Below are positions 5,132 through 19,907 of a stretch of 64,000 bases of DNA, in pieces. The stretch comes from an uncultured Chloroflexia bacterium (GTDB lineage: Bacteria > Chloroflexota > Limnocylindria > Limnocylindrales > CSP1-4). The translations under genes were made by a program, and so were the position numbers. Numbering within the stretch: the stretch's first letter is position 1; each line of letters starts with the position of its first letter. The notes below the pieces were generated by a model. It was not told where the DNA came from and did not search any database. It was given only the letters and a program-made list of their open reading frames with translations. Location: the NCBI GenBank assembly GCA_963833285.1, contig CAWHXM010000004.1:192481-256480 (forward strand). The letters are read 5' to 3'.

Positions 5132-6496
5132 CTAGGGCCGCTGCGTCTTTTCGGGCGGTTTCGGCGGCGCGAACAGCCACGTCTCGGGCACGCCGGGCCG
5201 GCCGAGCGTCCCGAGCGACGTGCCGTTCAACGTGAAGTACGTCACGCCGGACGACCCCGTCCTGACCTCGATCGAGTCGCGTCCGGTGAAGGTCAGGGCC
5301 TTGCCGTTCGAAACGACCTGGCCGGCCGCCCCGACGCTCGGCGCGATCTTGCCGTCGACCCACACCTTGATCCAGGCTCGCCCACCCTTGACCGTGACGA
5401 CGAGCGTCACGCCCTTGTAGGCGACCGTGACGCTGCGCGTCAGCGAGGCCGTCTTGCCCTCGGGACTGCGGGCGGTGACCGTAAGCGTCCACCGCCCGGC
5501 GGTGAGCTCGTACGGGGTGTTGAACGTGCCGTCATCGGCGACCTTGACCGTGACCGACGCCGGCACCGGCGGCGGCGCGGGCGACGCCTGACCGGCCGCC
5601 GTGGCCGGCCCGGACGAGCCGACCCAGGCCGCGCTCACGACCACGGACTCGGCGTTGGTCGCCTTGCCGGCGACCGGGATCGCCCCGTTCTCGAACGACG
5701 CGCCCTCCGACGGTTGGTCGACGGTCAGCGTCGGCGCCTCGATTACCAGGAACGGGACCGTGATGAAAAGATGGATCGTCTCCTCGGAGTGCTTGCCGGT
5801 GTCCGGGTCGAGCGCATTGACATCGAACTGGTTGCGGCCGCGACGCAGGTCGACGTCGGCCGACCACTTGCCATCGGACGTGGCGGTGACCTGGTAGGGG
5901 TCGCGCCCCGGCGTCGCGATCGACACGGTCGCACCGGGCAGGGTGTCGCCCTCGAGCGTGTACCTGGTCGTCAATTCGTCGACGTCGATGACGCTGGTCG
6001 CCGGCTGGGTCACCGCGATCGTGGGCGGCTTCGCGAAGCGGAGCACCTGGATGCCGAGATAGGCCCCGAAGGCGACCACGACGACCGTGAGCAGCGCCGC
6101 GACGACGATGCCCGGCGAGAACGTCAGACCTTTCCGCGGCGCGGTGATCGGCTTCGGGACGACGATCGCGGGGACCTGCTCCTTGCCGTCGCCGCGTTCC
6201 TTCCGCCACTGGAGGAGGACGTCGTCCGGATCGAGCCCGAGATAGAGCGCGTAGTTGCGCAGGAAGCCCTTGGTATAGACCGCGCCTGGGAGCTCCTTGT
6301 AGTCACCGCGCTCCAGGGCACCGAGGTAGCGCGCACGGATCTTGGTATCGCGCTCGGCCCGGTAGAGATCGACCCCCTTGCGCTCGCGCGCGGCGTACAG
6401 GCGCTCGGGCAGGCTCGGGCCGGGGTCGGCGCCCGCGCGGTCGGTGTCGGATCGATCGACCCGCACTGCGCGCTTGAGCTGCCCTCGCGTGGTCAT
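5132..6496 (-). CDS. RodZ-like membrane protein (N-terminal HTH, one TM helix, Ig-like middle, DUF4115-like C-terminus)
   Basis: 454 aa. LYAARERKGVDLYRAERDTKIRARYLGALERGDYKELPGAVYTKGFLRNYALYLGLD (RodZ HTH). TM helix IVVAALLTVVVVAFGAYLGI. C-terminal GGRAWIKVWVDGK...FTLNG. Confidence 0.75.
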   Translation of the reverse strand: MTTRGQLKRAVRVDRSDTDRAGADPGPSLPERLYAARERKGVDLYRAERDTKIRARYLGALERGDYKELPGAVYTKGFLRNYALYLGLDPDDVLLQWRKERGDGKEQVPAIVVPKPITAPRKGLTFSPGIVVAALLTVVVVAFGAYLGIQVLRFAKPPTIAVTQPATSVIDVDELTTRYTLEGDTLPGATVSIATPGRDPYQVTATSDGKWSADVDLRRGRNQFDVNALDPDTGKHSEETIHLFITVPFLVIEAPTLTVDQPSEGASFENGAIPVAGKATNAESVVVSAAWVGSSGPATAAGQASPAPPPVPASVTVKVADDGTFNTPYELTAGRWTLTVTARSPEGKTASLTRSVTVAYKGVTLVVTVKGGRAWIKVWVDGKIAPSVGAAGQVVSNGKALTFTGRDSIEVRTGSSGVTYFTLNGTSLGTLGRPGVPETWLFAPPKPPEKTQRP

Positions 6497-8838
6497 CCGT
6501 CTTCCCCGGGATCGTCGTCCAGTCCGCCCGTTCCGATCGCCTCGTCGCGACGAAGGACCGGCCGGGCATTCGACCCGTCGAATGCCCCGATATAGCCGCG
6601 CGCCTCCAGCTGATCGATCATCCGGGCCGCGCGCGCATACCCGACCTTGAGGCGGCGCTGGAGGAGCGACGCTGAAGCACGATCGTACTCCCGAATCACC
6701 TCGATGGCATCGGGCAGCAAGCGATCCGCATCCTCGTCCGCGAGATCGTCGGCCGAGCCGGTGGCCTCATCGCCGGTGTCGATGATCGCCATGTCGTACT
6801 GGGGGTCCTCGATCTGCGCCTTCCAGTGGTCCACGACGCGCGCGATCTCCGGGTCGGAGACGAAGACGCCCTGGAGCCGCATCGGGCGGGGCAGGTCCGA
6901 CGGCTGGTAGAGCATGTCGCCGCGACCGATGAGATCCTCCGCGCCCGGGGCGTCGAGGATGGTCCGCGAGTCGATCTGGGAGGCCATCGCGAAGGCGATC
7001 CGGCTCGGGAAGTTCGCCTTGATCAGCCCGGTCACGACGTTGACCGACGGGCGTTGCGTGGCCAGGACCATGTGGATGCCGGTCGCACGCGCCTTCTGGG
7101 CGAGGCGGACGATCGGGTCCTCGACGTTCTTGCCCTCGCGCATCATCAGGTCGGCGAGCTCGTCGACGATGATGACGATGTAGGGCATCCGATCCTCCGG
7201 GTCGGCCCGCGTCTCATTGAACGCCCGGATGTTGCGAGCCGATGCGCCGGCGAGGCGTCGGTAGCGGGCCTCCATCTCGTTGACCGCCCACTTGAGCGCG
7301 GCCTTGGCGCGCTCGGGCTCGGTGATGACCGGGACGAGCAGGTGCGGCAGCCCGTTGTAGGCCGCCAGCTCGACCCGCTTGAGGTCCATCAGGATCATCC
7401 GCACGTCATCGGGGGTCGCCTTGCACAGCAGGCTGGTGATGACCGCGTTGACCATCACGCTTTTGCCCGAGCCGGTCGCCCCGGCGATGAGCAGGTGCGG
7501 CATCTTGGCCAGGTCGACCGCCTTGGCCACGCCCGCGACGTCGCGGCCGAGCGCGAACGTCAGCTTCGACTCCGACGCGGTGAATTCGACCTCCTCGAGG
7601 ACTCGCCGCAGGGGCACCGCGTTGAAGTCCTTGTTCGGGACCTCGATACCGACCGCGCTCTTTCCGGCGATCGGTGCCTCGATCCGGAGCGAGTGCGCCG
7701 CGAGCGCCATCGCGAGGTCGTCGGATAGCGCCTCGATCCGGCTCAGCTTGATGTCCGGCGCCGGGTTCACCTCGTACTGGGTCACCACGGGCCCGGCGTT
7801 GCGCCCGACGATCCGGGCCGGGATGCCGAAGCTGGCAAGCTTCTTGACGATGATCTCCTCGTTGCGCCCGTGGACCGCCTCGTCGCCGCCGGCGTGGATC
7901 GGGATCGCGACGTCCTCGAGCACGGTGATCGGCGGGAGGATGTACTCGACGCGATCCTTGGTCAGCGGCGAATCGCCGGCGTCGGTGATGTCGTCGGGGT
8001 CGCGGACGGGCCGGATCGGAGCGACCAGCGTCGCCGCTGCCGCAGCAGTCCCGCGGGCGGGCGCGAACGTGTTGGAGGTCTGGCCCTTGCTGGGAACCGC
8101 CGCCGGGATGGCCAGCTCCTCGCCCTCGCCCCACGCGCCGGTCTGGCCGGGGGATGCGCCCGCCGGGACGGCCTTCCCGTTCGTCCGGGCACGATTGTTG
8201 GCCGCGATCGCGGCCTCCCCGGCAGCCACGCTCGCGTCGGCGTCGGGGTCAGGCGGGGTCCGGCGCATAGACGCGGCCGCGGTCGCCCCGAACCACCTGG
8301 CGGTCCCGACGGCGGGGTGCATGAGCCGCCGGAGCGGGATCCCGAACCCGACGATGATGCCGAGGATCGCGAGGCCGATGAGCAGGATGAACGCACCGGG
8401 CGCCGTGAACCAGTCGGTCAGGGTCCCCGCCAACGCTCGCCCGACGCGGCCGCCGGATACGCCGAGGACCTGGGCCGCGCCGACGATCCCGACGTAGGTG
8501 ATGCTCATCCCCAGGAGGGTGATCCCCCAGCCCGATCCGGGTCGCGTCCCAGGGCCCCATTCGAGCCACCATCCCGCGACCAGCAGGAAGAACGGCAACA
8601 GCCAGCGCATGGTGCCGAACCATGGTGCGAACACACCGGTCCACCAACGGGTAAGGGCACCCTCGCCGGACAGCATCAATGCGATGAACGTCATCGCACC
8701 GAGGACCAGCAGCGTCAGCCCGATGATCGAGCGGACGACCTCGGGCGTGATGCGCGAGCCCCAGGCGCTCGAGGTCGAGCGCGCCCGGGACGCGCGGGTG
8801 GGTGTCTTGCGGGTCGGCGTCCGGCGGCGCGTCGCCAC
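6493..8838 (-). CDS. ftsK: DNA translocase FtsK/SpoIIIE
   Basis: N-terminal TM helices, Walker A GATGSGKSV, LIVIIVDELADLMM, and a C-terminal gamma-like winged helix (LLQRRLKVGYARAARMIDQLE). The ORF runs to 8913, but I chose GTG 8838, just after the rnj stop. Confidence 0.92.
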   Translation of the reverse strand: MATRRRTPTRKTPTRASRARSTSSAWGSRITPEVVRSIIGLTLLVLGAMTFIALMLSGEGALTRWWTGVFAPWFGTMRWLLPFFLLVAGWWLEWGPGTRPGSGWGITLLGMSITYVGIVGAAQVLGVSGGRVGRALAGTLTDWFTAPGAFILLIGLAILGIIVGFGIPLRRLMHPAVGTARWFGATAAASMRRTPPDPDADASVAAGEAAIAANNRARTNGKAVPAGASPGQTGAWGEGEELAIPAAVPSKGQTSNTFAPARGTAAAAATLVAPIRPVRDPDDITDAGDSPLTKDRVEYILPPITVLEDVAIPIHAGGDEAVHGRNEEIIVKKLASFGIPARIVGRNAGPVVTQYEVNPAPDIKLSRIEALSDDLAMALAAHSLRIEAPIAGKSAVGIEVPNKDFNAVPLRRVLEEVEFTASESKLTFALGRDVAGVAKAVDLAKMPHLLIAGATGSGKSVMVNAVITSLLCKATPDDVRMILMDLKRVELAAYNGLPHLLVPVITEPERAKAALKWAVNEMEARYRRLAGASARNIRAFNETRADPEDRMPYIVIIVDELADLMMREGKNVEDPIVRLAQKARATGIHMVLATQRPSVNVVTGLIKANFPSRIAFAMASQIDSRTILDAPGAEDLIGRGDMLYQPSDLPRPMRLQGVFVSDPEIARVVDHWKAQIEDPQYDMAIIDTGDEATGSADDLADEDADRLLPDAIEVIREYDRASASLLQRRLKVGYARAARMIDQLEARGYIGAFDGSNARPVLRRDEAIGTGGLDDDPGEDG

Positions 8839-8839
8839 C

Positions 8840-10513
8840 TCAGACCTCGACGACGACCGGGAAGACCATCGGCCGTCGCTTCGTCTGCTCGTAGAGGTAG
8901 CGCGAGACCCCATCCTTGATCTGCGTCTTGAGGAGAGCGATCTCGCTGATGTGGTCGCCCGGCGTGTCGATCGAGGCCATGACCCTTTCGACCGCCTCGT
9001 CCATGATCGGGTCGCGCTCGTTGAGATGGACGAAGCCGCGGGTGATGATCTCGGGCTTGCCGACGATCGACCCCGTCTGCTTGTCGACCGTGACGACGAT
9101 CATGAAGATGCCGTCGTTGGCCAGCGCCCGCCGGTCGCGCAGGACGATGTCGCCGACGTCACCGACCGACAGACCGTCGACGTAGACGTAGCCGGCGGTC
9201 ACCGGTGTGCCACGCCGGGCCGATCCGTCGGCGTAGAGCTCGATCGGCATGCCGTTCTCGATGATGAACACGTTCTCGGGCTCGACCCCGGTCTCGATCG
9301 CCAGCCGGCCGTGCTGGACCTGCATCCGGAACTCGCCGTGCATCGGGATGAAGTGCTTGGGCTTGGTCAGCCCGAGCATCAGCTTCAACTCCTCCTGGCT
9401 CGCATGCCCCGAGACGTGCGCCCGCTTGATCGTGTGGTAGTAGACGTTCGCGCCGGCCTTGAACAGGTTGTCGATCGTGCGCGAGACGTATTCCTCGTTG
9501 CCCGGGATGGGGCTGGCGCTGACGATGACCGTGTCGCCCGGCTGGATCTCGACGAAGCGGTGGTCGCGATTGGCCATCCGCGCGAGCCCGGCCATCGGCT
9601 CGCCCTGGGCGCCGGTCGTGGCGATGACCAGCTGCGCGTCGGGGTGGTCCTTGATCCTGTCCTTCGGGACGATCCGCGACGGATCGTAGGTCAGGTACCC
9701 GAGATCGGTCGCGATCCGGAAGTTCTGCTCCATCGAGCGCCCGATGACCGAGACGTTGCGGTTCATGTCCGCGGCAGCGTCGAGGACTTGCTGGACGCGG
9801 GCGATGTTGCTCGCGAAGGTCGCCACGATGACGCGGCCGGTCAGCGGCTCCATGATCTCGCGGAAGGCGTCGCCGACGGTCCGCTCGGATGGCGTGTAAC
9901 CGGGGTTCTCGGCGCGGGTGGAGTCGGACAGCAGGCAGGCCACGCCCTCCTCGCCGAGCCGGGCGAGGATCGCGAAGTCGGACAGCTTGCCGTCGACCGG
10001 CGTGTGGTCGAACTTGAAGTCACCGGTGTGGACGATCGTCCCGACCGGGGTCCGCAGGGCGATCCCCATCGCGTCGGGGATGGAATGGCCGACGCGGAAC
10101 GGGATGACGTGGAACGCCCCGATGTCGAGCTCGTCGCCGGGCTCCAGCGCGATGAGCGGGTTGTTGTGAAGCTTGTGCTCCTTGATCTTGTTGCCGAGCA
10201 GCCCACGGGCCAGGGTGGACGCGTAGACCGGGACGCCCGGGAACTCCGGCAGCACGTATGGCAGCGCTCCGACGTGGTCCTCGTGGGCATGGGTGATGAG
10301 GAACGCCTTGACATTGGCGCGGCGCTCCTTGAGGTAGCTGATGTCGGGGATGACGAGGTCGATGCCGAACATCTCCTCGTCGGGGAACATCAGCCCGCAG
10401 TCGATGACGACGATCTCGTCGCGGTATTCGAAGACGTACATGTTCTTGCCGATCTCCCCCACCCCGCCGAGCGGGATGATTCGGAGCGGCTGGTCGTTGG
10501 TGGTGGCTGGCAT
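8840..10513 (-). CDS. rnj: ribonuclease J
   Basis: 557 aa. Metallo-beta-lactamase HAHEDHVGALP, beta-CASP and C-terminal domain. N-terminus LRIIPLGGVGEIGKNMYVFEY. Confidence 0.95.
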   Translation of the reverse strand: MPATTNDQPLRIIPLGGVGEIGKNMYVFEYRDEIVVIDCGLMFPDEEMFGIDLVIPDISYLKERRANVKAFLITHAHEDHVGALPYVLPEFPGVPVYASTLARGLLGNKIKEHKLHNNPLIALEPGDELDIGAFHVIPFRVGHSIPDAMGIALRTPVGTIVHTGDFKFDHTPVDGKLSDFAILARLGEEGVACLLSDSTRAENPGYTPSERTVGDAFREIMEPLTGRVIVATFASNIARVQQVLDAAADMNRNVSVIGRSMEQNFRIATDLGYLTYDPSRIVPKDRIKDHPDAQLVIATTGAQGEPMAGLARMANRDHRFVEIQPGDTVIVSASPIPGNEEYVSRTIDNLFKAGANVYYHTIKRAHVSGHASQEELKLMLGLTKPKHFIPMHGEFRMQVQHGRLAIETGVEPENVFIIENGMPIELYADGSARRGTPVTAGYVYVDGLSVGDVGDIVLRDRRALANDGIFMIVVTVDKQTGSIVGKPEIITRGFVHLNERDPIMDEAVERVMASIDTPGDHISEIALLKTQIKDGVSRYLYEQTKRRPMVFPVVVEV

Positions 10514-12550: not shown

Positions 12551-15136
12551 CTACGCGACCGGATCCTTCGCCAGATGACGCTGCATCGCGGCCTTGCGCG
12601 ACAGGTTGATCCGGCCCTGGCGGTCGACCTCGGTCACGACGACCATGACCTCGTCGCCGACGGCGACGACATCCTCGACGGTCGGGACGTGGTAGTCGGC
12701 CAGCTCGCCGATGCGAACCAGGCCTTCCTTGCCCGGCAGGATCTCGACGAATGCGCCGAAGCCCATGATCCGGGTGACCTTGCCGAGATAGAGCGAGCCG
12801 ATCTCGACGTCGCGGGTGAGGCTCTCGATCCAGTTGATCGCCTTCCGGGCGTTCTCGCCGGACACGGCCGCGATCTCCACGGTGCCGTCGTCCTCGACGT
12901 TGATCTCGGTCTGGGTCTCTTCCTGGATCTTGCGGATCATCGATCCGCCCTTTCCGATGATCTCGCGGATCTTCTCGGGGTTGATCTTGATGGTGGTGAT
13001 GCGTGGCGCGAAGTCGCTCATCTCGTGGCGTGCCTCGGGCATGACCTCGGTCATCTTGTCGAGGATCTCGAGCCGGGCCGCGAGGGCCTGTTTGAGACCG
13101 TCGCGGATGATCGCCTCATTGATGCCCTGGACCTTGATGTCCATCTGCAGGGCGGTGATGCCGTCCCGCGTACCGGTCACCTTGAAGTCCATGTCGCCGA
13201 CCGAGTCCTCCTTGCCGAGGATGTCGGTCAGGACGACGAAGCGGCCGTCCGGCTCGCTGATGAGACCCATCGCCGCACCGGCCACCGGGGCCGAGATCGG
13301 CACGCCGGCGTCCATCAGCGCGAGCGTCGAGCCGCACGTCGAGGCCATCGAGGTCGAGCCGTTCGACGACATGCACTCGGACACGAGCCGGATGACGTAC
13401 GGGAAGTCCTCGCTGCTCGGCAGGACCGGGATGAGCGCCCGCTCGGCCAGGTTGCCGTGTCCGATGTCGCGCCGGCTGGGGCCGCGCATCGGCTTGTTCT
13501 CGCCGGTCGAATAGGGCGGGAAGTTATAGTGATGGATGTAGCGCTTCTCGGTCCTGGGGCTGATCGTGTCGATGCGCTGGACGTCCGATGACGAGCCGAG
13601 CGTGGCGATGGTCAGCACCTGGGTCTCGCCGCGGGTGAACAGGCCGGAGCCGTGCGCGCGCGGGAGGACGCCGACGTCGACCGAGATCTGACGCAGCTCG
13701 GTCAGGCCGCGACCGTCCATGCGGATCCCCTCGTCGAGGGCGAGCCGGCGGGCGGTCTTCTTGTTGATGAGGTTGAACAGGGCCTTGCTGACGCGGGCCT
13801 CGCGACGGGCAGCCTCGGCGAGGGCCTTGCTGTCGCCGCCGGTGCGGGTCGCGCGGATCGACTCGGCAATGCCGTCGCGGAGCGCGGCGATGCGACCGGG
13901 AAGGTCGTTGCCGAACCAGATCAGCAGGTTGGCCGTCGCCTCGGCGTCGGGGAGGGCCCGATGCGCCTGGGCGAGCTCGATGCCGAAGAAATGCGACAGC
14001 GTGGGCAGCTTGTAGTTCTCGAGATCCGGATAGCCCTCGCGTGCGATCGTCAGGGTATCGAGGTAGCGACCCGACTCGAAGTGCGTGCCGTCGGCCAGCG
14101 CAGCCTCGATGAAGGCAAGGTCGAACCCGACCGAGTGACCGACGATGATCGAGTCACCGATGAACTTGACCGCGTCCTTTGCGGCGTCGGCCGGCTTCGG
14201 GACCTTCTTGACGTCGGCGTCCGTGATGCCGTGCATCTGGTTGCCGATGATCGGACGGCCCGGGTTGACCAGCGTCGACCATCGGTCGGTGATGACGCCG
14301 CCCTTGACCTTGACCGCGGCGATCTCGAGCAGGTCGGCCATCCCGGGGTCGGTGCCGGTCGTCTCGACGTCGACGATGACGAACTCGTCACCCGCGGCGA
14401 CGCGGTCCGCAAAGTCGAGGACCGTGCCGGTCCCGGCCTCGAGGAACGGCGTGCTCTTGGCCTTGCCGACCGCCTCGCGAAGCTGCTCCTGGATGTCGAT
14501 GAGCGGCTGGAGCGCGCGGTGACCGAACAGGATCGCCTCGGCCATGACGGACTCGGGCAGCAGCTTGGCACCCGCCTCGACCATCATGATCGCGTCGCGG
14601 GTGCCCGCGACGATGAGGTCGAGCTCCGAGTCGGCGAGCTCGCTGTAGGTCGGGTTGACGACGAACTCGCCGCCGATGCGGCCGATCCGGACGGCGCCGA
14701 CCGGGCCGGCGAACGGGATCTCGCTGATCGTCAGCGCGGCCGACGCGGCAACCGTGCCGATGACGTCGGGCTCGTTCTCCTGGTCGGTGGAGAGGACCGT
14801 GATGACGACCTGGATGTCGTCCTTGTAGCCCTCGGGGAAGAGCGGGCGGATCGGGCGGTCGGTCAGGCGGGCGGCCAGGGTTGCCGCCTCGGACGCGCGG
14901 GCCTCACGCTTGATGAAGCCGCCCGGGATCTTGCCCGCGGCGTACATCCGCTCCTCGAACTCGACCGTGAGCGGGAAGAAGTCGAGGCCCGGGCGGGGAT
15001 CGGACCGGTTGGCGGTCCCGAGCACCATGGTGTCGCCGTAACGGACGGTGACGGCGCCGCCGGCGAGGCGGGCGAGCCTGCCGGTCTCGATGGTCAGCGT
15101 TCGACCAGCGAATTGCGTCTCGAAGATCTGAGACAA
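12551..15136 (-). CDS. pnp: polynucleotide phosphorylase (PNPase) with an inserted DEDDh 3'-5' exonuclease domain
   Basis: 861 aa with a TTG start behind AAGGAGGAA. PH1 (aa 1-230), PH2 ([35 protein letters not shown]...), KH ([14 protein letters not shown]) and S1 ([15 protein letters not shown]) are all present. Residues ~251-409 are a DnaQ-like exonuclease module (see finding). Confidence 0.95.
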
Positions 15137-15143
15137 GGGAAGG

Positions 15144-15175
15144 TTCCTCCTTGGTCGTGGAGGAGGACGACGACC
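15144..15175 (-). promoter_or_regulatory. pnp leader: alternative hairpins that sequester or release the pnp Shine-Dalgarno
   Basis: Minus strand GGTCGT-CGTCCTCCTCC-ACGACC-AAGGAGGAA. GGTCGT/ACGACC can pair, placing the anti-SD in the loop. Alternatively TCCTCC pairs with the SD GGAGGA. Confidence 0.45.
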
Positions 15176-15206
15176 TGCTGCAGATCGGCCGACTGGGCCT
15201 TGGGCG

Positions 15207-15251
15207 CCGGATGCGGCAGGACCCCGGTCTGTGCCGGGGTCCGGATGCGGC
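15207..15251 (-). promoter_or_regulatory. rpsO-pnp intergenic stem-loop flanked by an 11-bp direct repeat
   Basis: GGACCCCGG-6 nt-CCGGGGTCC (15219..15242) flanked by CCGGATGCGGC at 15207..15217 and 15241..15251. There is no U-tract. The position matches the rpsO terminator / pnp processing hairpin known in other bacteria. Confidence 0.5.
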
Positions 15252-15256
15252 GACGC

Positions 15257-15526
15257 CTAGCGGCGGAGTCCGAGTCGTCCGATGACGACCCGGTAGCGCG
15301 CGCTGTCCTTCTTCATCAGGTAGGCGAGAAGGCGGCGGCGCTGGCCGACGAGCTTGAGGAGGCCGCGGCGCGAATGATTGTCTTTGGGGAAGCTCTTGAG
15401 ATGCTCGGTCAGCTCCTTGATCCGCTCCGTCAGGAGCGCGACCTGGACTTCCGGCGATCCGGTGTCACCTTCCTTGGTGGCAAACCCGGTGATGATCTCC
15501 TGCTTCTCTTCCCGCGCGAGCGGCAC
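15257..15526 (-). CDS. rpsO: 30S ribosomal protein S15
   Basis: 89 aa with a GTG start 7 nt after [50 protein letters not shown]...RRRLLAYL. The 368-aa track ORF is only real in its last 89 codons. Confidence 0.95.
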
Positions 15527-16361: not shown

Positions 16362-16925
16362 ATGCCGCGACTGACGAGGATCTATACGAAGACCGGCGAC
16401 GAGGGGAGGACCGGACTCGGTGGCGGCCAGCGCGTGCCAAAGGATTCCCAGCGGGTGGAGACTTACGGCACCGTCGACGAGCTCAACTCGCAGATCGGCG
16501 TGGCGCTGGCGACCGGGTTGTGTCAGCGGCTGTCCGGGGAGCTGCGACTCATCCAGAACGAGCTGTTCGATCTGGGGGCGGACCTCGCGACACCCGCCAC
16601 GAGCCAGGCTCGCCACCCCGTCCCCACGGTCGAGCCGCGCCACATCGAGAAGCTCGAAGGGCTCATCGACGAGTTCAACGAGGTGGTCGGGCCGCTCACC
16701 AACTTCCTGCTGCCGGGCGGGGCGCCGGGAGCGGCCCAGCTCCATGTCGCCCGGACGGTCTGTCGCCGGGCCGAGCGGGCGGCCACCACCCTCGCCCGCG
16801 AGGAGACCATCGGCCCGACGGTCCTCCGCTACCTCAACCGGTTGTCCGACGCGCTGTTCGTCATGGCGCGCTACGAGAACCACGAACGTGGCGTCCCCGA
16901 ACCGCTGTGGGAGCCCGGAACCTGA
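16362..16925 (+). CDS. pduO: ATP:cob(I)alamin adenosyltransferase, PduO type
   Basis: 187 aa. [46 protein letters not shown]...LPGG...[12 protein letters not shown]. Confidence 0.9.
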
Positions 16926-17163: not shown

Positions 17164-17922
17164 TCAGCCCGCCCCGAGCTCGACGGTGACCCTTCGTTCG
17201 GCGACCTGGCCGAGCAGGTAGGCGTCCCCGCCCGCGATCTGCAGCGCGAGTGGCTCGCCGTCGACGCGGACGTCGTAGTCGCCGTCGGGCGGCAGGGCGA
17301 TCGGCAGGCCGAAGTCGAGACGCGTCCGTCCGTCGACCGCGCCACCGATCGAGCCGGTGATGGTGACCGGCCGTCCGAGGAGCCTGGCCGCGCCCTCGAG
17401 GTCGCCGCCGGCGATCGCCGCGCGGATCGCCGAGCTCCTGACCTCCTGCCCGTCGAGCGTGAATGGCAGCACGACGACGACATCGAACCCGTCGCGCCCA
17501 CCGAGCTCGGCGAGCGTCGTCGGGGTGCCTCGCCGCTCGTAGCCGAAGGCGGCGTCGGGTGTCATCAGGATGCCGCTCAGGACCACTCCGGCACGGATCC
17601 GTTCGACGAAGGCGTCGTACGGCGTCCGGCGCAGGACGTCGTCGAAATGCTGGACGACCGTGACGGCCACCCCGGCAGCCTCGAGTCGCTCCAGCCGCTC
17701 CTCCGGATCGAGCAGGAGGGCCGGCGCCGTCCCGCGCAGGACCTCGTCCGGGTGGTGGTCGAAGGTGATGACCGTCGGTTGCGCTCGTCGCGCGGCCGCC
17801 TCGGACACGAGATGCTCGAGGAGATAGGCATGTCCGAGGTGCATGCCGTCGAAGACGCCCACCACGACGAACGCAGGCCCGAGCTCGGGTCGAAGCGCAT
17901 CGACCCCCAGGACCACGTCCAT
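17164..17922 (-). CDS. ribF: FAD synthetase (RibF) with shortened, degenerate riboflavin-kinase module
   Basis: 252 aa. FMN adenylyltransferase motifs VGVFDGMHLGHAYLL, VITFDHHP and SSAIRAAI are present. The C-terminal module is only ~72 aa. Confidence 0.8.
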   Translation of the reverse strand: MDVVLGVDALRPELGPAFVVVGVFDGMHLGHAYLLEHLVSEAAARRAQPTVITFDHHPDEVLRGTAPALLLDPEERLERLEAAGVAVTVVQHFDDVLRRTPYDAFVERIRAGVVLSGILMTPDAAFGYERRGTPTTLAELGGRDGFDVVVVLPFTLDGQEVRSSAIRAAIAGGDLEGAARLLGRPVTITGSIGGAVDGRTRLDFGLPIALPPDGDYDVRVDGEPLALQIAGGDAYLLGQVAERRVTVELGAG

Positions 17923-18887: not shown

Positions 18888-19907
18888 TCAGCGCGCCAGT
18901 TGCGCGACGAGCCGATCCGCCTCGGCCAGGACCCTGGGGCGCGCCTCGGCCAGCGGCGCCTCCACGGTGGCGCCTGCCGCCCGAGCGTGCCCGCCCCCGC
19001 CGAACCGGCCGGTGAGGACTGTGGCGTCGACGCCGCCCGGCTTCGTCCGGACCGAGACCCGCGTCTCCGGGCCTGCTTCCTTGAACAGGATCGTCACCTC
19101 GGCCGCATCGGCCTGCGACAGCAGGTCGATGATCCCCTCGGAGTGGGCGCGGTCGGCACCGCTGGCGGTCAGGTCCGCCTCGGTCATGCTCGACCAGACG
19201 ACCCGCCCGTCATCGGAGCTCTCGAGCCGATCGAGGACCATCCCGAACAGGCGCAGCTGCACGTCCGGCTTGGTGCGGTAGAGCCGGCGCGAGATGTCCG
19301 ACAACGGTGCTCCAGCCTCGACCAGGGCTGCCGCGACGACGAGCGTCCGGGGAGTCGCATTCGAGTGGGCGAAGGTGGCGGTGTCCATGACGATGCCGGC
19401 CATCAGCGCCGCTGCCAGCCCGCCCGCGTCGGAGTCGAGGGGGACGCCGAGCCGGGCCGCGAGGAGGGTCACCATCTCGCACGTTGCCGCGGCGCGAGGG
19501 TCGATCCAGTCGGTCGCGCCGTCGGCGTCGTTCGATGCGTGGTGGTCGAGGATCACCCGCGGCAACCGCGCGAACAGCTCCGCGTGGCGGTCGGCGACGT
19601 CGCCGATCCGTTCGAGCGAGCCGCAGTCGGAGATGACCACGAGGTCGTACGGCGCGGCCGGATCCGGGTCGGTCCGGAAGCGCTCGACACCGACGATGAA
19701 GTCGTACAGCGGCGGGACCGGGTCGGTGCAGACCGGATCGGCCATCCCGCCGTTGGCCTCGATCAGCCGCACGACGCCCAGCGTCGCCCCCAGCGTGTCG
19801 GCATCGGGGTTCTCATGACCGACCGCCAGCACGCGTCGTGCTCCTCGCAGGCGATCGACGACGACCTGCGGGACTGCGTCGAGGTATGGGCCAAGGTCGA
19901 CCGTCAC
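18888..19907 (-). CDS. nrnA: DHH-family phosphoesterase (NrnA-like oligoribonuclease/pAp phosphatase)
   Basis: 339 aa. GHENPDADTLGA, DHHASN, and DHHA1 motif FGGGGHARAAG. GTGA overlap with the rbfA stop. Confidence 0.88.
   Translation of the reverse strand: MTVDLGPYLDAVPQVVVDRLRGARRVLAVGHENPDADTLGATLGVVRLIEANGGMADPVCTDPVPPLYDFIVGVERFRTDPDPAAPYDLVVISDCGSLERIGDVADRHAELFARLPRVILDHHASNDADGATDWIDPRAAATCEMVTLLAARLGVPLDSDAGGLAAALMAGIVMDTATFAHSNATPRTLVVAAALVEAGAPLSDISRRLYRTKPDVQLRLFGMVLDRLESSDDGRVVWSSMTEADLTASGADRAHSEGIIDLLSQADAAEVTILFKEAGPETRVSVRTKPGGVDATVLTGRFGGGGHARAAGATVEAPLAEARPRVLAEADRLVAQLAR

Follow-up and report, generated by a model that had tools for sequence, protein, structure and literature searches.

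Can a polynucleotide phosphorylase (PNPase) carry a second nuclease domain within its own chain as a lasting trait, and if so, what might that domain do? From bacteria through to human mitochondria, few RNA-decay enzymes have a domain layout as conserved as that of PNPase, and given this conserved layout the presence of a second nuclease domain within PNPase across a lineage is unexpected. The question is raised by the pnp gene in a 64,000-nucleotide stretch of DNA from an uncultured Chloroflexia bacterium (contig CAWHXM010000004.1), the whole of which is referred to as the window. The results confirmed that the protein encoded at 12551..15136 is a PNPase with a DEDDh exonuclease domain inside its helical linker; we regard this architecture as certain. 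We propose that the enzyme, the housekeeping PNPase of the class Limnocylindria, may be a bifunctional phosphorolytic and hydrolytic 3'-5' exonuclease, and on the present evidence we put the probability of this at roughly 0.55.

When the 861-residue protein was matched against Pfam, we found RNase_PH twice, RNase_PH_C, KH_1 and S1, and, between the two PH domains, RNase_T (PF00929). The latter match extended over residues 253–405 and covered the profile from end to end (positions 1–164 of 164, E=5.5e-27, 95.8 bits, gathering score 24), and the 159-residue insert by itself scored 99 bits against the same cut-off. The NCBIfam equivalog model of PNPase, TIGR03591, matched well above its cut-off (937 bits vs 525), with the insert dividing the match into two stretches. 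On alignment to the Staphylococcus epidermidis PNPase 5yjj, residues 3–224 corresponded to 18–239 and residues 452–851 to 311–709; since the alignment splits at 224/452, the extra residues fall in the helical linker. Solved typical bacterial PNPases have 705–731 residues, i.e. they are approximately 150 residues shorter. A preliminary description of this DNA had proposed an 861-residue open reading frame (ORF) about 150 residues longer than usual PNPases, with an in-frame exonuclease module inside the helical linker and intact KH and S1 domains. The ORF listing, the split alignment, the AlphaFold2 model described below and the Pfam matches all agree with this, with RNase_T flanked by RNase_PH, KH_1 and S1 as had been anticipated, and Pfam and the motif alignment showed that the PH2 site is intact as well.

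To what extent the fusion is shared was surveyed with the best 120 clusters at 90% identity for the window protein, together with the best 120 relatives of P0122, which among the genuine full-length relatives of a 50%-identity library has diverged furthest (54% identical over the insert and its flanks). All 120 of the former clusters, which were 83–92% identical to the window protein and 845–866 residues long, contained PF00929 as well as the PNPase domains, and the fusion was present in 120/120 of the listed relatives of P0122, which belongs to the freshwater genus Candidatus Limnocylindrus. Across both listings, more than 230 independent 90%-identity clusters share the fused architecture at identities of 70–95%. 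They were drawn from JGI, ENA, NCBI and Logan assemblies, with contigs of up to 2.8 Mb, and those with taxon names are Chloroflexota or Candidatus Limnocylindrales. Among the GTDB species genomes, at least 15 loci span the insert and both junctions at 55–87% identity, essentially all of them labelled Chloroflexota/Limnocylindrales; among the matches listed, those below these 15 consisted of the DEDDh core alone, at 45% identity or less. The gene order was also shared with the window, rpsO lying directly upstream of pnp in 14/15 related loci (as judged by the S15 motif) and asd downstream in 10/15. There was no DEDDh-bearing PNPase outside this one family among the best 150 representatives at 50% identity. 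We considered independent PNPase-DEDD fusions elsewhere and rejected them, as among these 150 representatives the other DEDDh matches of PNPase-like length were FAN1/VRR-NUC, GIY-YIG, PolC or DinG proteins.

Thus, the fusion is widespread, it lies entirely within Limnocylindria among the families found, and it is a trait of at least two major branches of this class, from soil lineages to Candidatus Limnocylindrus. According to a genomics paper, the class consists of four clades whose habitats range over soil, sediment and freshwater, and the Candidatus Limnocylindrus family is strongly genome-reduced (PMC13212565). Since the insert has been kept in a clade of so reduced a family, it is likely to be under a selected function. 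Two fused pnp genes were found under other labels, one on a 2.2-kb contig labelled Verrucomicrobiia (L006; 83% identical to that of the window over the insert region) and one on a 16-kb contig labelled Polarisedimenticolia (L013; 62% identical); both are probably mis-binned Limnocylindria contigs.

The catalytic residues of the insert, D256, E258, D339, H392 and D397, were invariant in 14/14 species loci with an intact ORF (the 15th locus is frameshifted) and in an 80-sequence family alignment covering both sub-clades; the residues and their numbering are exactly those given in the preliminary description. Lineages in which these residues are invariant are merely about 52–55% identical in the insert region, and the alignment showed that the surroundings of the motifs are the best-conserved parts of the insert. 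In the PH2 domain, the motifs SNGSTSMAS and GDMDFK did not vary in any of the related loci extending over PH2. We take the phosphate-binding SNGSxSMA and the metal-binding GDMDFK to be equivalent to the catalytic residues of Escherichia coli PNPase. Both catalytic centres thus appear intact, and their conservation points to two active sites in the protein.

The median ratio of nonsynonymous to synonymous substitution rates (dN/dS; Nei-Gojobori, 55 pairs) was 0.29 for the insert, 0.16–0.18 for PH1, PH2 and KH-S1, and 0.39–0.58 for the linker segments; as dS is compressed by the extreme G+C content at third codon positions (GC3), these figures are meaningful as relative values only. By this measure the insert is under purifying selection. 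Recent horizontal acquisition was considered and rejected: GC3 was 0.91 in the insert and 0.88–0.95 elsewhere in the gene, i.e. there was no anomaly, and a mild dip in overall GC content is also present in the KH-S1 region.

Some relatives at first appeared to carry degenerate inserts in divergent lineages, P0171 giving a partial RNase_T match and P0174 no Pfam match, as would be expected of catalytically dead variants, and this idea was abandoned when both proved to be frameshifted translations. The same applies to P0131, P0133, P0151, P0152, P0160 and P0188, all of which, like the former two, show long R/P/S/A-rich runs in the alignment. Many of the 50%-identity cluster representatives of the fused family are such frameshift artefacts of a high-GC gene, and the nanopore-derived GTDB locus L015 is likewise a frameshifted copy, an artefact that resembles a divergent variant.

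To which branch of the DEDDh exonucleases does the insert belong? The best NCBIfam models were the PRK07883-type 'DEDD exonuclease domain-containing protein' (142 bits), DinG and PolC, and the best sequence match in the PDB was the Thermotoga maritima PolC exonuclease 2p1j (E=2.7e-22), with DinG and Cas2-DEDDh next in rank. Its closest genomic relatives outside PNPase were a DinG-type helicase-nuclease (45% identity), PolC (40%) and a Chloroflexota DEDD-GIY-YIG protein (38%), with FAN1/VRR-NUC-DEDDh proteins as further relatives. The RNase T family was absent from the best 25 of 30 NCBIfam matches; in the PDB, RNase T 2f96 was a marginal match (E=1e-3, with no stretch passing by itself), and in the Foldseek search RNase T ranked below DinG, PolC and epsilon. 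Neither Orn nor REXO2 was found among the best 25 of 30 NCBIfam matches, the PDB sequence matches or the best 50 Foldseek matches. These comparisons place the insert in the DnaQ/PolC-exo/DinG-exo branch and not with RNase T or Orn, and since its nearest relatives are exonucleases of DNA metabolism, the donor was presumably a DEDDh domain of the replication or repair type. The label 'DnaQ/RNase T-like' in the preliminary description accordingly stands in its first half, DnaQ-like DEDDh being what PF00929 and Foldseek indicate, while RNase T enters only through the name of the Pfam family; the activity on 3'-phosphorylated ends that was suggested there found no support. The epsilon equivalog TIGR01406 did not reach its cut-off (67.6–72 bits vs 222.7), whereas the broad subfamily-domain model TIGR00573 ('dnaq') was passed (75–77 bits vs 71.5). 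As only the latter passes, the name 'DNA polymerase III epsilon subunit family exonuclease' used by JGI is a domain-level label and no proof of an epsilon subunit.

We predicted the structure of the full-length protein with AlphaFold2 from an 80-sequence alignment (mean predicted local distance difference test score [pLDDT] 75.8, predicted template modelling score [pTM] 0.72; pLDDT 82–97 over residues 251–430). In this model, helix 237–248 runs into the first DEDDh strand, and the last DEDDh helix, starting from ExoIII, continues unbroken over residues 394–432 into the helical domain of PNPase. A separate model of residues 205–475 (pLDDT 85.4, pTM 0.79) contained the same continuous helix. The monomer predictions suggest that the DEDDh domain is held on a rigid mount and not on a flexible tether. 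In a Foldseek search, the full model matched solved PNPases at target-normalised template modelling (TM) scores of 0.7–0.87, and no solved PNPase bearing an extra domain was found among the Foldseek and PDB sequence matches (chain lengths of 784 residues or less). The module matched Staphylococcus aureus DinG, PolC, a CRISPR-associated DnaQ domain, Cas2-DEDDh and epsilon at TM scores of about 0.77; the matches to 8h18, 2gui, 1j53 and 8fyc (target-normalised TM 0.77–0.78, root mean square deviation 2.5–2.9 Å, as for the set as a whole) indicate an RNase H-like alpha/beta fold of the DnaQ type.

The linker itself was harder to recognize. The native protein had no Pfam match to PF03726, and the all-helical domain is seen only in the model helices 237–248, 394–432, 436–447 and 451–469. 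After deletion of the insert in silico, a PF03726 match appeared that was limited to profile positions 45–80 (E=0.004–0.04) and lay below the gathering score; the remaining linker of 26+42=68 residues is near the approximately 71 residues of 5yjj. The notion of a clean insertion, with PF03726 restored on its removal, was thus true in part, the C-terminal half alone being weakly recovered, and the N-terminal half of the helical domain appears to be beyond PF03726 recognition. The helical domain of E. coli PNPase is variable and dynamic; it is located on the face of the torus opposite S1/KH and contributes to a side pore that leads to the PH2 active site and has been proposed to control the traffic of nucleoside diphosphates (NDPs) and phosphate (PMC2723993). 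By analogy, a trimer would bear its three DEDDh domains on the face opposite S1/KH.

A bifunctional enzyme could have arisen and could work as follows. The ancestor of the sampled lineages would have gained a DEDDh domain of the DnaQ/PolC-exo/DinG-exo type inside the alpha-helical linker, and each protomer would then contain a phosphate-dependent PH2 site that releases NDPs and a metal-dependent, hydrolytic DEDDh site that releases nucleoside monophosphates. Fixed rigidly on the helical domain via the single continuous helix of the model, the DEDDh site would hydrolyse 3' ends that the phosphorolytic channel handles poorly, the candidate substrates being short limit oligonucleotides exiting the core and 3' ends in base-paired structures, and decay would then run to completion without the need of phosphate. 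This reading takes the DEDDh site to be active, RNA to be its substrate and its action to be coupled to the PH core. Several observations weigh against it. All the closest relatives of the insert (DinG-exo, PolC-exo, DEDD-GIY-YIG and FAN1-DEDDh) act in DNA metabolism, and the exonuclease of Bacillus subtilis DinG does not cleave linear single-stranded RNA with Mg2+ (PMC12525004). An NrnA-like DHH/DHHA1 nanoRNase is encoded about 4 kb off, and the clearance of short oligonucleotides may therefore already be covered; since this gene lies in the pnp cluster, the lineage encodes a separate candidate oligoribonuclease, and the idea that the insert substitutes for a missing oligoribonuclease is weakened. 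The linker geometry, finally, comes from a monomer AlphaFold2 model and is suggestive.

The possibility exists that the DEDDh module serves a DNA- or R-loop-linked role of PNPase, the fusion joining in one chain two enzymes, PNPase and a DinG-type exonuclease, whose substrates are shared in other bacteria. The ancestry of the insert fits such a role, with DinG-type, PolC and DEDD-GIY-YIG proteins as its nearest relatives by identity and PRK07883, DinG and PolC as the best NCBIfam and PDB matches. The B. subtilis DinG exonuclease prefers single-stranded DNA and also breaks down the RNA strand in R-loops (PMC12525004), B. subtilis PNPase is reported to digest the RNA of RNA:DNA hybrids (preprint PMC13251995), and PNPase degrades single-stranded DNA in repair (PMC2709576, PMC3241651, PMC5379764). 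On the other side, the host of the insert is a single-locus housekeeping pnp in an rpsO-pnp operon whose RNA-binding KH and S1 domains are fully conserved, and the neighbourhood gives no hint of DNA repair save an unremarkable uracil-DNA glycosylase (UDG)-family gene two genes downstream. Poor discrimination between sugars is frequent among DEDDh enzymes, and the substrate is therefore not fixed by ancestry. Taken together, we consider the DNA- or R-loop-linked role the main alternative, and less probable than the bifunctional reading.

It is also conceivable that the insert is catalytically silent and that its role on the helical domain is solely to give structure, bind nucleic acid or dock a partner. 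Inactive DEDD-fold domains exist in other proteins, and variability and dynamics are features of the helical domain too (PMC2723993). Against this stand the five catalytic residues, which are invariant at about 52–55% identity, the conservation around the motifs, which is the highest within the insert, the dN/dS of 0.29 and the fact that the seemingly degenerate copies are frameshifted translations; a silent module is hence unlikely. An assembly chimera, which the preliminary description had named among the findings that would overturn it, or a recent mobile insertion or a part of a pseudogene, could be argued for from the slightly lower overall GC content of the insert (0.656 vs 0.65–0.75 in the other regions), and no other support for it was found. 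The same in-frame layout recurs in hundreds of independent assemblies (more than 230 clusters) and, with the gene order conserved, in at least 15 genomes of different species, GC3 is uniform over the gene and the insert is under purifying selection. A chimera is excluded on these grounds, and we see next to no chance that the insert is an artefact or a passing element of any of these kinds.

The bifunctional reading can be taken further. The enzyme might be a bacterial counterpart, of a single-polypeptide type, of the mixed chemistry of the exosome, with three DEDDh sites held rigidly on the exit/side-pore face and the substrate or limit products handed directly between sites, giving phosphate-independent, structure-tolerant RNA decay or removal of R-loop RNA. 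We offer this picture tentatively and think it rather doubtful in its full form. The bifunctional reading itself is favoured by precedents in which PH rings and DEDD nucleases are paired. In the eukaryotic exosome, a PNPase-like PH ring works alongside the hydrolytic 3'-5' exonucleases Rrp6 (DEDDy) and Rrp44 (PMC4245959), and in the plant exosome, Exo9 brings phosphorolytic and hydrolytic activity together in one machine (PMC5735172). However, each nuclease of the exosome is a subunit of its own, the DEDD one belonging to the DEDDy/RNase D type, whereas here a DEDDh domain is covalently part of each protomer of a presumed homotrimer; the likeness is one of analogy, with no homology of arrangement. 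A DEDD exonuclease also acts alongside the human mitochondrial PNPase-SUV3, where REXO2 turns tetranucleotide end products into mononucleotides (PMC7261184), and the Caulobacter degradosome has RNase D as a component, for which its authors cite the exosome Rrp6 as a parallel (PMC4245959). In both of these systems the partner is a separate protein of the Orn/REXO2 or RNase D subfamily, whereas the insert is no orthologue of Orn or RNase T.

With canonical PNPases (TIGR03591; E. coli 3cdi/3gcm, S. epidermidis 5yjj, Caulobacter crescentus 4am3), the Limnocylindria enzyme shares the PH1-linker-PH2-KH-S1 order, the PH2 motifs, the rpsO-pnp position and the structural similarity given above; it alone has a 159-residue DEDDh domain in the linker and an N-terminal helical half that PF03726 does not recognize. 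The exonuclease domains of PolC (2p1j, 9qpc), DinG (8zef) and DEDD-GIY-YIG (PRK07883) are the best matches of the insert, with identical ExoI/II/III motifs and 38–45% identity, and in PolC the DEDDh domain is likewise nested in another domain (a PHP match at 329–680 encloses RNase_T at 415–566). Their hosts, however, are DNA polymerases, helicases and repair nucleases, whereas the host of the insert is an RNA phosphorylase. In the Cas2-DEDDh fusion 8fy9, a related DEDDh domain (E=3e-12) on a host protein trims the 3' ends of the substrate of that host; unlike the present case, this is a terminal fusion that acts on DNA prespacers in an unrelated pathway.

Full-text literature searches, and a targeted reading of a recent (2026) Limnocylindria genomics paper, gave no description of a DEDDh-bearing PNPase, in line with the preliminary description, whose author knew of none. 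What appears to be new is the nested combination of PNPase and DEDDh and its retention across a lineage, both domain families being well known already, and as the architecture is visible in the domain tables of public databases, it is uncharacterised and not unseen. The orthologue records (P0003–P0120, P0289–P0382) are named 'polyribonucleotide nucleotidyltransferase' at NCBI and often 'DNA polymerase III epsilon subunit family exonuclease' at JGI, an inconsistency caused by the inserted domain. Since Limnocylindria peak at up to 18–30% of soil and sediment communities (PMC13212565), the enzyme is likely to be environmentally common. If both sites are active, it represents a natural experiment that joins phosphorolytic and hydrolytic 3'-5' decay in one polypeptide. 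PH rings are associated with DEDD nucleases in mitochondria, the exosome and the Caulobacter degradosome, and the enzyme would be a parallel to this in one bacterial protein; it would also open tests of why cells pair both chemistries and of the role of the helical domain and the side pore. The DinG/PolC-type ancestry also fits recent reports of R-loop RNA removal by PNPase and by the DinG exonuclease, and a function common to both may be reflected in the fusion.

The coordinates of the gene, its domains and its upstream region are collected in the table.

Features of the pnp locus in the window (nucleotide positions of the window; residues of the 861-residue protein)
Feature	Position	Strand	Remarks
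pnp coding sequence	12551..15136	-	861 aa + stop; start TTG; AAGGAGG Shine-Dalgarno just 5'
PH1 (RNase PH + RNase_PH_C), aa 1-224	14465..15136	-	Pfam; aligns with 5yjj residues 18-239
Pre-insert helical-linker segment, aa 225-250	14387..14464	-	divergent; loop 224-236, helix 237-248; median dN/dS 0.58
Inserted DnaQ-like DEDDh 3'-5' exonuclease domain (predicted activity), aa 251-409, 159 aa	13910..14386	-	PF00929; PolC-exo 2p1j; AlphaFold2; Foldseek
ExoI motif D256-x-E258	14363..14371	-	invariant
ExoII aspartate D339 (GHSVGFD)	14120..14122	-	invariant
ExoIII motif H392-x4-D397	13946..13963	-	invariant; the histidine indicates DEDDh, not DEDDy
Post-insert helical-linker segment, aa 410-451	13784..13909	-	helix 394-432 unbroken from ExoIII, then helix 436-447; weak PF03726 match, positions 45-80
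PH2 (second RNase PH), aa 452-700	13037..13783	-	SNGSTSMAS from aa 591; GDMDFK aa 647-652, nt 13181-13198
KH domain, aa 714-771	12824..12997	-	Pfam KH_1
S1 domain, aa 777-848	12593..12808	-	Pfam
rpsO-pnp intergenic leader	15137..15256	-	stable hairpin about 15219-15242; Shine-Dalgarno
rpsO (ribosomal protein S15)	15257..15526	-	Pfam Ribosomal_S15 E=1e-35; immediately upstream of pnp, canonical arrangement

The gene lies in a minus-strand cluster consisting of infB, rbfA, the DHH/DHHA1 gene, truB, ribF, rpsO, pnp, asd, the UDG-family gene, RNase J and ftsK. The hairpin in the rpsO-pnp leader, just past the rpsO stop codon, is a perfect GC-rich stem of 9 bp (GGACCCCGG/CCGGGGUCC), and the leader as a whole has a folding energy of -53.4 kcal/mol (z = -2.6); by comparison with other pnp leaders, it may serve for termination, attenuation or processing. 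With Rfam at gathering thresholds, no RNA family was recognized in the window (1–64000). The DHH/DHHA1 protein, encoded between rbfA and truB (18888–19907, minus strand, 339 residues), is of the NrnA-like nanoRNase/pAp phosphatase type. RNase J (beta-CASP and RNase_J_C; 8840–10513, minus strand) is encoded three genes downstream of pnp, past asd and the UDG-family gene, and ftsK (6493–8913) comes next after it. In the ribF-like ORF (17164–17922, minus strand, 252 residues), we found the FAD synthetase domain only, with no riboflavin kinase domain at E<=1e-5. The run from ribF to rpsO is broken by a 187-residue ORF on the opposite strand (16362–16925, plus strand), the N-terminus of which presumably resembles a PduO-type cob(I)alamin adenosyltransferase.

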